Below, one piece after another: positions 10,622 to 62,190 of a stretch of 64,000 bases of DNA (positions are counted from its first letter, which is position 1; every line of letters starts with the position of its first letter). The position numbers and the translations under genes are program-made. The notes under the pieces were generated by a model that ran no database searches, was not told the origin of the DNA, and saw nothing but the letters and a program-made list of their open reading frames with translations. The DNA comes from Oligoflexales bacterium (GTDB lineage Bacteria > Bdellovibrionota_B > Oligoflexia > Oligoflexales > Oligoflexaceae): positions 15,331 through 79,330 of the forward strand of contig JBFWNG010000013.1 of the NCBI GenBank assembly GCA_050251195.1, given 5' to 3'.

Positions 10622-10650
10622 GGAGATCCTTCGCTGCGCTCAGGATGATG
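10622..10650 (+). repeat. Dispersed intergenic repeat, family A copy (GAGATCCTTCGCTGCGCTCAGGATGA)
   Basis: Near-identical to 48441-48471 and 61201-30. Partial copies lie at 48475-48497 and 9192-9204. Confidence 0.6.
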
Positions 10651-10715
10651 AAGTCCGCTGCGATGATGAAGTCCGTTTCGATGATGAAGTCCGTTGCATA
10701 ATGAAGTCCGTACCG
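10644..10715. repeat. 18-bp tandem repeat x4 (GATGATGAAGTCCGYTKC)
   Basis: Units at 10644, 10662, 10680 and 10698, the last degenerate. The array is directly fused to the family A copy and is followed by the hairpin GTCCGT...ACGGAC at 10706-10728. Confidence 0.8.
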
Positions 10716-48442: not shown

Positions 48443-48638
48443 GAGATCCTTCGCTTCGCTCAGGATGACGGCTGGACGAGATCCTTCGCTTCGCTCCAAC
48501 CTGTCGGACAATTCCTTCTGCGTTTCCTTTATTCCGCGCTTCCGCGTTCAATTAAGAGATCTTGGAAACGCTGAAAGGGTCGGGCGCAAGCAAGATAGGT
48601 GCTCAGAATGACGGGCTCACAGCTCATCAGGATGATGG
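48441..48638. repeat. Mosaic of short dispersed repeats (family A x2 plus half copies, family B x1) between convergent genes
   Basis: Family A at 48441-48471 and 48475-48497. Family B at 48509-48551. A-like 3-prime halves (GCTCAGAATGACGG, GCTCATCAGGATGATGG) at 48601-48638. Confidence 0.65.
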
Positions 48639-57870: not shown

Positions 57871-58248
57871 TTGTTTGGTGTAGGACCTTTAGAACTAGTT
57901 GTAATTGTAGTTGCCGCTATTGTCTTTGTCGGCCCCAAAAGACTGCCTGAAGTTATGAAGCAGATGGGGCGTTTTTTCGTTCAGGCTCGTCGTTATTCGA
58001 ACGAAGTGAAAAGCGGTTTCAACGAAGTGGTAAGACAGGCTGAAGACGAACTTCGACAAGAAGAACTCAAGAAAATCAGGGATGAACTCAAAGAAGACGT
58101 TAAGGCTGCACTCCCTGACAAAAGTGAAGTTTTTGTTCCCTCTTTTAAAAAACCCCAAGAGAAGCCACCGGGGGACCACGGCCCTGATTTCTTTGCCGGT
58201 GATAACCCCGAAGATGTTAATTCGCTGAATGAGAAAGATTCAAAATAA
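57871..58248 (+). CDS. tatB: Twin-arginine translocase subunit, TatB-like
   Basis: MFGVGPLELVVIVVAAIVFVGPKRLPE followed by an amphipathic helix. 125 aa. TTG start. Confidence 0.75.
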   Translation: MFGVGPLELVVIVVAAIVFVGPKRLPEVMKQMGRFFVQARRYSNEVKSGFNEVVRQAEDELRQEELKKIRDELKEDVKAALPDKSEVFVPSFKKPQEKPPGDHGPDFFAGDNPEDVNSLNEKDSK

Positions 58249-58360
58249 GCCATCGTCATGGTAAATTATTACTATTGGTTTCCAAATAGGTTCCCATAAG
58301 TTCTCTATTTTATTTGCGGTTTTTTACGCCCCCTCCATAATTTAGTATTTTGAGGATGCA

Positions 58361-59905
58361 GTGTCGATGCTGATGTGGCGGTTGTTCGTCTTTGCTGTAC
58401 TCGCCGTTGTCGAGCTGCCTATCCATTCGCAGTTTCAAGCCCAGGCTGAACCCTGGTTGGCAAGTCGTTACGCACAAAATTGTGCTGCTTGCCATGCGCC
58501 GGGTAGAAAGAACCTTAGGTCCCAGGATCGTCGGTGCTCCGCTACTTGTCAATCGTGTCACGTAAATCCAAACGGCGGAGGACTGCGAAGCTTTTACGGC
58601 AAATGGAACGAAAACCGATGGCTTCGGTCATGGGGCAACGCGACCTTCAAGAGCGAAGAGGTACCAGCGCCGCTTAAGGAGCAGCCATACGCAGGCAAGA
58701 GAAAACGAAAGGCGAAGAGGCTGCAACGAATCTTTGCCAAGGGATTCGTGATGGAGGGGCTCAGAGGCGAACCGAAGAGCGAAAATCCCTATAACAGGGA
58801 TCACGATTCCAACTACCAAACGCCGGCCAGAAACCGTTACGACTTCTTGTACTCCATACCGCAGCACGATCCGTATCGACAGTTGGTCGACTTAGGCAAA
58901 ATCGACGGAGGCAGCGACATTCGCTTTGCGACAATTATTCCACAATCCACCCAATCTTCCCAAGGTCCTGTCGAAAAAGAAAAGACGAGGCACTTTATAA
59001 TGAGCGCCGATTTCGGAATACGCTGGAGGCCGGTGAACAGGCGTTATCACCTTGTCTACGAGACTCGCTGGAGGGGAGACCCAACGGGCGATAATTTGGA
59101 CGCGCAAGTTACTGCTAATAATTTAGACACTCGTTCCCTCTATTTCTTGGCGGAGGACCTGCCCTATAACATGTTTGTCATGGCTGGGTATTATCGGCCG
59201 CTTTTTGGCAACTATGTTCCCGATCATACCACCTTGGGACAAAGGATGATGGCCTATATCCTAACAGACACCCCAATGGCGTATTCGTTTATTTATAGGG
59301 CGATATCGGTCGGCGCTGCGCCTTTCGGCCATGCGTCTACTATTCCCTATTTCAACCTTCACTATATCGGCGATAATGTCGGACCAGGTGCCCAACAGGT
59401 CAAAAGCGGCGGAGACAATACCAACGGCTACGCCGCCAATATTGGTATGCGTTTCGTGTCTTATGGGGCTTCGGTGAATTATTCGTTGTGGCGGACGAAG
59501 CACACACGGGATAACGTGTTTATAGGCAAAGTCGACATTTTGATGCATGCTTTCGGCATGATGGGACAGCTTCTCGACAAACGCCTTTTTTTAAGTTTGG
59601 AAGCAATTTCCATGGAAAAGGACGACGTTACGGAAAGTTTCAGAAAAGGCGGAGTGATCATCCTAGACTCCAAGTACCGGATGTGGCGAGAACTTTGGGC
59701 GACGCTGGAATACTCTAAAGCAAATACTTCCCACGATTTAAAGCCGGGATCTGCGAATCAATTGAAGGCTGGTGTAAGAATGTTTATGATACCAGGTATC
59801 GATTATTCGTTTCAGTATACCAAGGATGCGAATAGTTACGACGATCCAGAGGCGGACAGCAGAAAGACGGCTTATCTGATAAGTCAGTTGCACACTTATT
59901 TTTAA
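58361..59905 (+). CDS. Secreted protein with two N-terminal CXXCH haem-binding motifs fused to a large beta-rich (possibly outer-membrane barrel) domain
   Basis: Signal peptide. CAACH at aa 41-45 and CQSCH at aa 63-67. About 440 aa are rich in aromatic/Gly alternation and end ...SQLHTYF (terminal Phe). Confidence 0.6.
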   Translation: MSMLMWRLFVFAVLAVVELPIHSQFQAQAEPWLASRYAQNCAACHAPGRKNLRSQDRRCSATCQSCHVNPNGGGLRSFYGKWNENRWLRSWGNATFKSEEVPAPLKEQPYAGKRKRKAKRLQRIFAKGFVMEGLRGEPKSENPYNRDHDSNYQTPARNRYDFLYSIPQHDPYRQLVDLGKIDGGSDIRFATIIPQSTQSSQGPVEKEKTRHFIMSADFGIRWRPVNRRYHLVYETRWRGDPTGDNLDAQVTANNLDTRSLYFLAEDLPYNMFVMAGYYRPLFGNYVPDHTTLGQRMMAYILTDTPMAYSFIYRAISVGAAPFGHASTIPYFNLHYIGDNVGPGAQQVKSGGDNTNGYAANIGMRFVSYGASVNYSLWRTKHTRDNVFIGKVDILMHAFGMMGQLLDKRLFLSLEAISMEKDDVTESFRKGGVIILDSKYRMWRELWATLEYSKANTSHDLKPGSANQLKAGVRMFMIPGIDYSFQYTKDANSYDDPEADSRKTAYLISQLHTYF

Positions 59906-59908
59906 GCG

Positions 59909-60895
59909 TTGGGGTATATGGCTTTAGGAAAATTAGCGCTATTATTATGTGCATGGGGGTTTTGTTCGGACCTTCTGGCAGGGTACGTTAAGGCAGCTCA
60001 GGTGAAAAGATGGGGCGGCGAGTTTCTTCCCCCAAATACCGGTGCGTTTGCGCTTCTGCTCGATACAGAAGGATTTCCTTTGGTGTCCAAAACAGGCGAG
60101 TTCTCGAGCGATGCGAATCTGTTTCTTCGCGAAAAGAGAACCAAGGCTCTCTATGTATACAACCAAAAAGTGCCACAAAGTAACCCCGGTCAAAGGTTCG
60201 TCTTTTTGTTGCCAGCCGGAGACTACGTCGTCGACCGAATAGAGCTTGTCGACCATCAGGGTAAGTTGCGCAAGTGGTCACCTCGAAAGTCGAAGGTTAT
60301 CTACGTTAGAGCTCTAACGCTGGCGCAGCTCGGGGTGTGGCAAATCGCGCCGTACAAATCGGATCTGAAAGTGAAGTTCAAAATGGATCAGAAACACATC
60401 CGGCCCAAGGACCTGGTTGAAGGGGACAAGACGTTTATGGCCTTTATCGATGGCTTTACGGGTAAGGTCGTTGGAAAGTATGGCGGCAAGGCAGTTTATG
60501 AGGCGTCACTCGATGAATTTGGGGAAGAGGATGAGTTAAGAAGTTCCTATACAGTTCAAACAAGGATCGCTGTTGTCTTTAAGCTCACCCTTCGCGGCGG
60601 CAGCAAGCCTGAATACGCCGACGTCTCAACAATCTTGTCTGTAAACGACACAAATATTCGAGGTTGTTACACCTCCGGTCTCGAAGTGAACGAGAAAATT
60701 AAGGGAACGGTAAAGTTCAACTTCGTTCTATCCAAAGCAACTGGCACGATGAAAAACGTGAAGCATTCGGGCGGGACCTTGCAGACCCAAAAGGTTATTT
60801 CCTGCTTGTATTATGAATTAGGAGCGATTAAATTTCCTATAAACAGAGACATTAGCGGCAATGTGCAATACCTTTTTCAATCCGAAACAGTATAG
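59909..60895 (+). CDS. Secreted protein with an AgmX/PglI-type (TonB-C-like) C-terminal domain
   Basis: Signal peptide. C-terminal IRGCYTSGLEVNEKIKGTVKFNFVLSKATGTMKNVKHSGGTL..KVISCLYYELGAIKFP resembles the AgmX/PglI C-terminal pattern. Confidence 0.5.
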   Translation: MGYMALGKLALLLCAWGFCSDLLAGYVKAAQVKRWGGEFLPPNTGAFALLLDTEGFPLVSKTGEFSSDANLFLREKRTKALYVYNQKVPQSNPGQRFVFLLPAGDYVVDRIELVDHQGKLRKWSPRKSKVIYVRALTLAQLGVWQIAPYKSDLKVKFKMDQKHIRPKDLVEGDKTFMAFIDGFTGKVVGKYGGKAVYEASLDEFGEEDELRSSYTVQTRIAVVFKLTLRGGSKPEYADVSTILSVNDTNIRGCYTSGLEVNEKIKGTVKFNFVLSKATGTMKNVKHSGGTLQTQKVISCLYYELGAIKFPINRDISGNVQYLFQSETV

Positions 60896-61189: not shown

Positions 61190-61200
61190 TTGCGGAGGGG

Positions 61201-61230
61201 TGAGGTCCTTCGCTGCGCTCAGGATGACGG
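61201..61230 (+). repeat. Dispersed intergenic repeat, family A copy
   Basis: TGAGGTCCTTCGCTGCGCTCAGGATGACGG, 12 nt after the stop at 61189. It overlaps the last 4 codons of egtD on the other strand. Confidence 0.6.
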
Positions 61231-62190
61231 AGAAGGCTTCAAGACAAATTCGGCAAAGTATTTCTTGGGATCGGTAAAAACGGCTTCGACATCGAAACCG
61301 TTTTCTTTAGTAAAATTGCAAAAAGATTTTATTTCGTACTTGCGGGAGAATTCAGTACAAATGCTCTCGCCTTGCTCAAAATGAAACATCTCTCCTTTTA
61401 TTGCCACCTCTTGGTTGATCTTGCTGACGAGGTGCATTTCGATACGTTGCGACGTTTCGTTGTAATCCGCCCTATGTTCGAAGCCTTTTAAATCGAAATT
61501 GGCTCCTATTTCGTTGTTCACTCGTTCGAGAAGATTCAGATTAAATCGCGAGGTAACCCCTTTGGAATCGTTATAGGCCTTTTGTAACGTCGTGCGATTT
61601 TTTACAAGATCGAGACCGACGATAAAAAGACCGTCGCCGTTAAGGATCTCCCGAACGAGTTGGAAAAGGCTTCTTGTTTCTTCCGAACTCATATTCCCGA
61701 GTGTTGAACCAGGAAAAAAGACAGCCTTGTTTGGATACCCCTTCTGAAGTTCTGGGGGGAAGGCAAGCTTTTGATAGTCGGCGCATATTGCGGAAATTTT
61801 CACGTCGGGAAAGAGCACGTTCAACTGTTTGCAGGATTTGAGAAGATGTTCGTATGATATGTCTACCGGTGCGTAGGCTCTTACCTTTCTTGAGACCTTC
61901 AGAATCCGCTGAATCTTGCTGATATTGCCGCTTCCCAATTCAATAAGAAGGGTGTCGTGGCGGAAGAGAGCGTCGATTTTTTCGGCGTACGTGTCGAGGA
62001 TGCTGCTTTCCGTCCGTGTAGGGTAATATTCCTTTAGGCAGCAAATTTTGTCAAAAAGTTTAGACCCTCTCTCGTCATAGAAGTATTTCGACGGAATATG
62101 TTTCGGATTATCGCGCAGACCTTGGACCACGTCAGCGAAAAAGTTGCTTTTAGCGGGTTCTAGGTTGTAGAAGTCTATTGTTTGTTGCAT
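61219..62190 (-). CDS. egtD: L-histidine N-alpha-methyltransferase EgtD
   Basis: YFYDERGSKLFDKICCLKEYYPTRTE and LIELGSG motifs. Adjacent to egtB. Confidence 0.9.
   Translation of the reverse strand: MQQTIDFYNLEPAKSNFFADVVQGLRDNPKHIPSKYFYDERGSKLFDKICCLKEYYPTRTESSILDTYAEKIDALFRHDTLLIELGSGNISKIQRILKVSRKVRAYAPVDISYEHLLKSCKQLNVLFPDVKISAICADYQKLAFPPELQKGYPNKAVFFPGSTLGNMSSEETRSLFQLVREILNGDGLFIVGLDLVKNRTTLQKAYNDSKGVTSRFNLNLLERVNNEIGANFDLKGFEHRADYNETSQRIEMHLVSKINQEVAIKGEMFHFEQGESICTEFSRKYEIKSFCNFTKENGFDVEAVFTDPKKYFAEFVLKPSPSS

Follow-up and report, generated by a model that had tools for sequence, protein, structure and literature searches.

What kind of protein joins a pair of c-type haem motifs to a large, beta-rich domain in a single chain? 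This question is raised by a gene at positions 58361 to 59905 of the window, the 64,000-nucleotide stretch of contig JBFWNG010000013.1 from an Oligoflexales bacterium that was analysed here. The original prediction, which was made from the DNA alone, was that the product may be a single-chain dihaem-barrel protein and that this would be an unusual device. The first part of that prediction stands: one polypeptide carries two conserved CXXCH motifs and, in its structural model, a porin-type barrel. The second part needs revision, since the fusion itself has precedents in the iron oxidases Cyc2 and Cyc572. We postulate that the product is a two-haem, Cyc2-like outer membrane electron conduit, in which an N-terminal dihaem c-type cytochrome domain is fused to a 16-stranded porin barrel; this interpretation, which draws on sequence comparisons and structural modelling, is the one that we favour, with moderate confidence.

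The features of the locus are collected in Table 1. Translation from the GTG codon at 58361, as given in the list of open reading frames (ORFs), yields a product of 514 residues, and all residue numbers used here are counted from that codon. The ATG at 58367, two codons later, is probably the likelier start, because it is better spaced, lying 10 nucleotides after GAGGA at 58352 to 58356, and because an identical database protein, P0001, has 512 residues; its use would shift the residue numbers by -2. The signal peptide, the two haem motifs, the NPNGGG segment that follows them (residues 69 to 74) and the C-terminal sequence ...LISQLHTYF could all be read directly from the translation, as the original prediction had described them. 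Cleavage of the signal peptide probably occurs after AQA, giving a mature N terminus of E-P-W, because E30, P31 and W32, immediately downstream of the A-x-A site, are invariant in 30 homologues. A scan for promoters and terminators around the gene gave nothing above shuffled sequences.

The evidence that the haem motifs are genuine comes from the family to which the protein belongs. A word-indexed protein search found 331 homologues, and an exhaustive search gave 251 cluster representatives, nearly all of them full length. Every homologue is annotated as hypothetical; the few source names recorded are Oligoflexus, Pseudobacteriovorax, Oligoflexales, Bdellovibrionota and one older "Deltaproteobacteria" label, and the dihaem family is apparently confined to Oligoflexia. 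It is present in 49 of the 131 genomes of a phylum-level set, mostly in the same order. In an alignment of 30 sequences of the long dihaem type (A1), which share 37 to 70% identity with the query, the invariant positions include E30-P31-W32, both CXXCH motifs, R57-R58-C59, P70-G72-G73-G74 and many barrel residues, among them M214, H289, H334 and H511. Invariance of both motifs at this level of divergence indicates that their pairing is not due to chance. The pair is also kept in the wider family: two CXXCH motifs were found in 185 of 200 full-length homologues, and the pattern CxxCH-x13-15-CxxxCxxCH was found in 184 of the 200 homologues of at least 380 residues, the exceptions being mostly N-terminally truncated calls. 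Of 200 homologues, 198 end in a hydrophobic or aromatic residue.

No existing profile describes this family. Scans of the cytochrome-porin against Pfam and NCBIfam returned only matches to the haem motifs, all of them below threshold, and no model covers the family. Membership in the paired-CXXCH family, one of two affiliations raised in the original prediction, is not supported, since Paired_CXXCH_1 (PF09699) scored 11.1 bits (E 0.34) against a gathering cut-off of 20.6 bits; the other, a relation to MtrB/PioB, found no match in the Pfam scan, in which an Mtrc-MtrF domain scored 16.7 bits against a cut-off of 30. The NCBIfam model diheme_GEGP (NF041762) gave 15 bits over the haem motifs only, against a cut-off of 300 bits; this candidate was dropped, its phylum-wide matches all being below the cut-off and none falling at the coordinates of the family in the source genome. 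A sequence profile search of PDB returned only chance matches to cytochrome c6 (E about 1). The same Pfam and NCBIfam libraries are also empty for the Cyc2-like proteins of Sideroxydans and Acidithiobacillus; therefore, the failure of these libraries says nothing about kinship with Cyc2.

The C-terminal two-thirds of the protein is predicted to be a porin. An AlphaFold2 (AF2) model built with the family alignment (mean predicted local distance difference test score [pLDDT], 77.5; predicted template modelling score, 0.76) has 16 strands over residues 181 to 513, and a Foldseek search of PDB with this model returned the 16-stranded general porins Omp32 (2fgq; TMt 0.71), PorB (3wi5; 0.72) and OmpF (about 0.62), with E values of about 1e-10. 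The AlphaFold check suggested in the original prediction therefore produced a porin-type barrel, and what had been a guess is borne out by the model. Like the dihaem family, these general porins have 16 strands and a long, helix-bearing loop between strands 5 and 6, known as L3; however, they are only 8 to 14% identical in sequence to the cytochrome-porin and lack a cytochrome domain, and no porin family in Pfam matches the cytochrome-porin.

When the alignment was mapped onto the modelled strands, the polar faces were found to be more conserved than the hydrophobic faces, and His230, His334, His396 and His511 lie on the polar face. The amphipathicity of the strands is modestly above that of shuffled sequences (1.47 versus 1.09; sd, 0.21), and the asymmetry in conservation is the clearer signal. 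The 33-residue loop between strands 5 and 6 carries the most conserved motif of the barrel, RPLFGNYxPDHxxLxQ, in which His289 is invariant. The same loop motif occurs in the short type of the family (as PNHSLW) and in a monohaem family of Oligoflexia (as ADHNA), both of which are discussed below, and the short paralogue was also modelled with 16 strands and the same loop. By analogy with the L3 constriction loop of porins, this segment may fold into the barrel lumen.

That the closest solved folds are diffusion porins would also suit a protein with no redox role, namely, a porin that transports haem, iron or another solute and whose haem domain serves as a plug, a sensor or a structural cofactor; the TonB-C-like AgmX/PglI domain encoded by the adjacent gene points the same way. 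We consider this improbable. Covalent-haem motifs that are invariant among proteins with 37 to 70% identity argue for a working redox cofactor, the paralogues associate with electron carriers and not with transport genes, and the AgmX-like neighbour is not conserved beyond a family-level group, within which an intervening MOSC-domain gene splits it off in the relatives.

If the protein is instead an electron conduit, its haems need axial ligands, and the alignment suggests where these might be found. Between residues 30 and 180, the only His residues conserved in A1 are those of the CXXCH motifs, and no Met is conserved; His289, His334, His511 and Met214 of the barrel are invariant; the distal ligands would thus come from the barrel, the loop or Cys59. 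Such an arrangement would fit a haem segment that is packed into the lumen, as proposed for Cyc2. Cys59, which has no conserved Cys partner, may be the distal ligand of haem 1; in multihaem cytochromes, a residue just ahead of one haem motif often serves as the distal ligand to the haem before it.

The same residue lends itself to another explanation, in which the protein is an outer membrane redox enzyme rather than a wire. Haem 1 would take Cys59 as a ligand, giving a His/Cys pair like those of SoxA and TsdA, and would act on a small substrate that enters the pore, such as a sulfur compound, a peroxide or a nitrogen oxide. Cys59 is unpaired, nearly invariant and located just ahead of haem motif 2, the strongly conserved polar lumen would suit a substrate site, and proteins with cytochrome P460 repeats flank one of the paralogues. 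However, homologue P0188 has Phe in place of Cys59, no sulfur oxidation or similar genes are conserved nearby in the loci that were compared, and ligation cannot be read from a sequence. We think that a catalytic role of this kind is quite unlikely.

The interpretation of the protein as a conduit relies on its resemblance to Cyc2. In Cyc2, a monohaem cytochrome-porin, a cytochrome segment that has a single CXXCH motif and is preceded by a signal peptide is fused to a porin of 16 strands; the protein is defined by the motif AXPXFAR[Q/K][T/Y] a few residues upstream of CXXCH and by PXL about 4 residues downstream (PMC8406198). It is the Fe(II) oxidase of Acidithiobacillus, Zetaproteobacteria and Gallionellaceae (PMC8406198, PMC13692758), and its biochemistry is described in PMC13692758. 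Cyc572 of Leptospirillum is likewise a single-chain, monohaem cytochrome-porin fusion with an N-terminal CXXCH and 16 strands (PMC10654088); we liken it to the dihaem family, from which it differs in having one haem, by its description alone. These two proteins contradict the statement, made in support of the original prediction, that the haem protein and the barrel of characterised conduits are always separate polypeptides (PMC8406198, PMC10654088). The cytochrome-porin fusion is therefore not new; the novelty lies in the extra haem, the unpaired Cys and the clade. In our literature searches, we came upon no account of a fused cytochrome-porin with two haems, nor of Cyc2-type proteins in Oligoflexia or Bdellovibrionota.

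For comparison, Cyc2-like genes were gathered by a back-translated motif scan, which yielded 58 ORFs from Acidithiobacillus, Sideroxydans, Gallionella, Thiomonas and others; all 58 encode a single CXXCH, and 32 of them were aligned (A2). The dihaem family resembles Cyc2 in having a signal peptide, a short N-terminal c-type cytochrome segment, a 16-stranded porin in the same chain and a hydrophobic or aromatic C terminus. In both, as well as in the monohaem Oligoflexia family (alignment A4), A-x-P-x-hydrophobic occupies positions -12 to -8 relative to the first Cys. The dihaem and Cyc2 families also share [FY]-G-[RK] downstream of the haem site; in the dihaem family, this is part of H-V-x-x-x-G-G...Y-G-[RK], which comes after the second motif. 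The differences are equally clear: the dihaem family has two CXXCH motifs and a lone Cys where Cyc2 has a single CXXCH, and its long type has a linker of about 100 residues ahead of the barrel. Strong conservation marks its barrel lumen and L3-like loop, unlike the poorly conserved barrels of Cyc2 (mean column identity, 45 to 54% versus 23%), and its named sources are all Oligoflexia or Bdellovibrionota, apart from the one older label. The likeness of architecture is solid and holds with or without homology.

The link of the dihaem family to Cyc2 at the level of sequence profiles runs only through the rare one-haem family A4. This family of 17 proteins was defined by a 381-residue monohaem protein that adjoins the short paralogue in one Oligoflexia genome; in that genome (G035, L049:8937-11008), a 312-residue protein with two CXXCH motifs and the 381-residue A4 cytochrome-porin lie directly downstream of the short dihaem gene, so that monohaem and dihaem forms coexist in one cluster. 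Comparison of A4 with the Cyc2 cytochrome segment gave a probability of 95.7% (P 1e-8), or 89% without the signal peptide, and its comparison with the barrels of the long and short dihaem types (A1 and A3) gave probabilities of 94 to 96% over about 300 columns. Comparison of a merged superfamily profile with Cyc2 gave a probability of 59%, and a search of the source genome with the Cyc2 profile gave no match.

These alignments also suggest how a second haem may have arisen. The single CXXCH of A4 aligns with motif 2 of the dihaem family, as does the CXXCH of Cyc2 when the merged profile is compared with A2, and motif 1 lies within a 22-residue segment that is absent from the monohaem relatives. 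We therefore propose, from these alignments, that motif 2 is the counterpart of the single Cyc2 haem site; the simplest reading is that a Cyc2-like N terminus acquired haem 1 and the lone Cys with the 22-residue insert, CxxCHxPGRx7RRCxxx. The dihaem protein is probably a distant relative of the Cyc2-type fused cytochrome-porins, and we would put true homology a little above an even chance on the strength of the profile comparisons.

The better evidence from gene context lies outside the window, where two paralogues have genes for c-type cytochromes as neighbours and the short one also has a HiPIP gene close by. The source genome (4.63 Mb, 94% complete) has three copies of the family: the gene described here, which is on contig C13, a second long paralogue and a short paralogue of 400 residues. 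Homology between the long and short types is clear (P 1e-47, A1 versus A3), and about 90 residues of the linker, in which conserved LRSxYGKWNE..WLRS and IPxxDPYR segments flank a variable basic stretch in A1, are missing from the short type. In 15 of 16 other genomes, the gene of the short type adjoins one for a tetrahaem lipoprotein cytochrome of about 140 residues, the exception being at a contig end. In the source genome, the two are separated by the only HiPIP gene of the genome and one hypothetical gene; this locus (G000:C6:149586-152733), in which the short paralogue is divergent from the gene for a HiPIP with a Tat signal (PF01355) and genes for a 247-residue Cys-rich hypothetical protein and the tetrahaem lipoprotein cytochrome come next, recalls the PioABC layout. 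The second long type adjoins a gene for a monohaem lipoprotein cytochrome of about 140 residues in the source genome and three others. In the source genome, that paralogue (G000:C17:22957-27422) is flanked by a 152-residue monohaem lipoprotein and by lipoproteins in which a cytochrome P460-like domain occurs three times and twice in tandem, every domain having a CXXCH; the multidomain P460 lipoproteins look unusual. Among culturable relatives, Pseudobacteriovorax antillogorgiicola appears to have every type of the family, and Oligoflexus tunisiensis Shr3 appears to have only the short type, together with the tetrahaem partner.

These modules invite comparison with the porin-cytochrome complexes (MtrCAB, MtoAB, PioAB(C) and Pcc), with which the dihaem protein would share the role of carrying electrons across the outer membrane on haems held within a barrel. 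In MtrCAB-type complexes, a barrel of 26 strands encloses a decahaem protein (PMC8406198). In these complexes the barrel and the cytochromes are separate proteins, unlike the single chain with 16 strands and two haem motifs described here. The short paralogue and its tetrahaem lipoprotein form a two-gene porin-cytochrome module similar to such complexes, and the HiPIP gene within that module in the source genome may be likened to PioC, the third Pio gene product, which is a HiPIP.

The comparison raises the question of direction. The architecture would work either way, and an outward conduit would export respiratory or assimilatory electrons, for example for the reduction of Fe(III) or Mn(IV) in iron acquisition or in anaerobic or microaerobic respiration, as MtrCAB and Pcc do. 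The pairing of the short paralogue with an outer membrane-type tetrahaem lipoprotein recalls the lipoprotein cytochromes of metal reducers, and the tetrahaem partner itself has weak matches, below the cut-off, to c3/c7-type cytochrome families, whose members usually have low potentials. Against outward flow stand the HiPIP gene near the short paralogue in the source genome, HiPIPs usually being high-potential carriers, and the haem-copper oxidases, of the aa3 type, encoded in the same genome; the family scans of the cytochrome-porin revealed no decahaem or porin family of the Mtr/Pcc type, and Oligoflexus tunisiensis, a relative in culture, is an aerobe (PMC4179278). We regard outward transfer as unlikely. 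For the inward route, which we prefer, a cbb3 oxidase was considered as the electron acceptor and dropped, since no FixO was found in the source genome.

It can be envisioned that the two-haem conduit is assembled and operates as follows. The protein would be exported by Sec and cut by signal peptidase after AQA, the Ccm system would attach haem to C41/C44 and C63/C66, and BamA would insert the barrel. The source genome encodes CcmE, CcmC/F and Omp85/BamA, so that an outer membrane c-type cytochrome can be made; in a more distant genome, a family member lies about 4 kb from a ccm operon encoding CcmB, CcmC, CcmE and the thioredoxin-like CcmG (L003:11529-13422, on a 2.95-Mb contig). The haem segment, tethered to the periplasmic side of strand 1, would pack into or against the barrel lumen, where His289 of the L3-like loop and the lumen-facing His230, His334, His396 and His511 may supply the missing axial ligands, while Cys59 may ligate haem 1. 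Electrons would then pass along a short relay of the two haems that links the cell exterior or barrel lumen with carriers in the periplasm. The favoured direction is inward, with a soluble external reductant such as Fe(II) being oxidised, as with Cyc2, and its electrons passed on to the aerobic chain, because the HiPIP gene and the haem-copper oxidases fit an aerobic lifestyle.

Several observations weigh against a Cyc2-like conduit. The dihaem family lacks the PXFAR[QK][TY] signature: in its consensus, AEPWLxTRFAQN-C, only A, P and the hydrophobic position match AXPXFAR[Q/K][T/Y], with the same spacing, and in place of PXL it has H-A-P-G-R-x-N-L after haem 1 and H-V-N-P-N-G-G-G-L after haem 2, in which Pro and Leu are otherwise spaced. 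Direct profile comparisons with Cyc2 gave probabilities of 64% for A1 and 70% for A3, which fell to 9% and 15%, respectively, once the signal peptides were removed, and profile comparison detected no sequence similarity between the dihaem and Cyc2 barrels. In the AF2 model, the N-terminal haem region is of low confidence (pLDDT below 50 for residues 18 to 43, 60 to 62 and 68 to 75), as is expected because the cofactor was absent from the run. The gene in the window, like the rest of its orthologue group, has no cytochrome neighbour, so the evidence from context comes from the paralogues, and the HiPIP gene adjoins the short type in the source genome only. O. tunisiensis is described as an aerobe that was isolated on R2A medium (PMC4179278), and neither iron oxidation nor extracellular electron transfer was found to be reported for Oligoflexia in a search of the literature.

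The immediate neighbours of the gene add little to its function. As the original prediction had it, the next two ORFs start at 59909 and 60905, 4 and 10 nucleotides past the preceding stops (gaps of 3 and 9 nucleotides), their AgmX-like and DUF4389-like identities are confirmed by scores above the cut-offs for NF033768 and PF14333, and a copy of the "family A" repeat, at 61208 to 61230, closes the cluster. It is tempting to see in this tight spacing a three-gene outer membrane device in which the cytochrome-barrel, AgmX-like and DUF4389 products act together, especially since the gene order recurs in four related genomes. However, the order TAL-OMT-TatB-X-AgmX-like-DUF4389, where X is the cytochrome-porin, was found only in those four genomes (L061 to L064), which belong to the same family-level group; in them a reverse-strand MOSC gene lies between X and the AgmX-like gene, which L063 lacks altogether. 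Eleven more distant loci have unrelated neighbours and no AgmX-like gene, with no covariation beyond the family-level group. A joint device is thus very improbable, and the cluster is no conserved functional unit: it is inherited synteny, tightened by the loss of the MOSC gene in the source genome, and not a conserved operon. The operon appears tight (59905 to 59909) because the MOSC-domain gene is missing here.

Similarly, the TatB-like gene directly upstream is found in the same position in L061 to L064 only and is probably a syntenic neighbour, not a functional partner; since c-type cytochromes are normally exported by Sec, the association looks syntenic rather than functional. The family A repeat (CTTCGCTGCGCTCAGGATGACGG, with 0 to 2 mismatches) has three copies in the window, at 10629 to 10651, 48449 to 48471 and 61208 to 61230, all on the forward strand, and none in shuffled sequences; it is no part of the function of the protein.

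Table 1. Features of the fused cytochrome-porin gene, its neighbours and its paralogues in the source genome
Feature	Position	Strand	Evidence
TatB-like gene, 125 aa, directly upstream	57871..58248	+	TIGR01410, 59.2 bits (cut-off 56.5)
Fused dihaem cytochrome-porin gene	58361..59905	+	ORF list; inspection of ribosome-binding site and start; identical database entry P0001
Signal peptide, aa 1-29	58361..58447	+	Hydrophobic N terminus; cleavage site inferred
Haem-binding motif 1, CAACH, aa 41-45	58481..58495	+	C41, C44 and H45 invariant
Lone Cys59 within RRC (aa 57-59), four residues ahead of haem motif 2	58535..58537	+	Invariant in alignments A1 and A3
Haem-binding motif 2, CQSCH (aa 63-67), then VNPNGGG	58547..58582	+	C63, Q64, C66, H67, P70 and G72-G74 invariant
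Linker, aa 75-180	58583..58900	+	Alignment A1; model confidence low to medium
Predicted 16-stranded porin-type beta-barrel, aa 181-514, ending ...HTYF	58901..59902	+	AF2 secondary structure; Foldseek
Long loop with short helix between strands 5 and 6, aa 279-311	59195..59293	+	AF2 strand/helix order; invariant columns
Secreted protein with AgmX/PglI C-terminal domain, 328 aa	59909..60895	+	NF033768, 44.4 bits, E 1.3e-11 (cut-off 40)
DUF4389 small membrane protein, 94 aa	60905..61189	+	PF14333, 81.2 bits, E 5e-23 (cut-off 25); syntenic in L061-L064
Dispersed short repeat "family A", 3' of DUF4389 gene	61196..61232	.	Repeat scan
Second long paralogue	C17:24773-26407	-	Genome scan
Short paralogue, 400 aa	C6:149586-150788	-	Genome scan

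A bolder proposal is that the family represents a third kind of trans-outer membrane conduit, in which a Cyc2-like barrel has gained a second, possibly His/Cys-ligated haem through the 22-residue insert, and in which the short form and its tetrahaem lipoprotein make a six-haem wire; this is a tentative idea that we think doubtful. If it is true, the six-haem form would stand as an evolutionary intermediate between Cyc2, with its one haem, and the large Mtr/Pcc complexes, and these aerobic, partly predatory bacteria would have a previously unrecognised capacity to exchange electrons with metals, minerals or prey outside the cell.

To our knowledge, fused cytochrome-porins are known only as the one-haem iron oxidases Cyc2 and Cyc572. 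This class would be widened by a conserved two-haem branch that comprises three classes of paralogue and has small cytochromes as its dedicated partners, and such a branch would provide a natural intermediate for asking how outer membrane wires gain haems; since the protein is small, the idea is directly testable by expression. Cyc2 serves as a marker for iron oxidation, and marker-based surveys would probably miss the dihaem family, because it lacks the Cyc2 screening motif and because Pfam and NCBIfam recognise neither this family nor the Cyc2-like proteins that were tested. In conclusion, the family would point to extracellular redox chemistry in Oligoflexia, for which our search of the literature turned up no such report.

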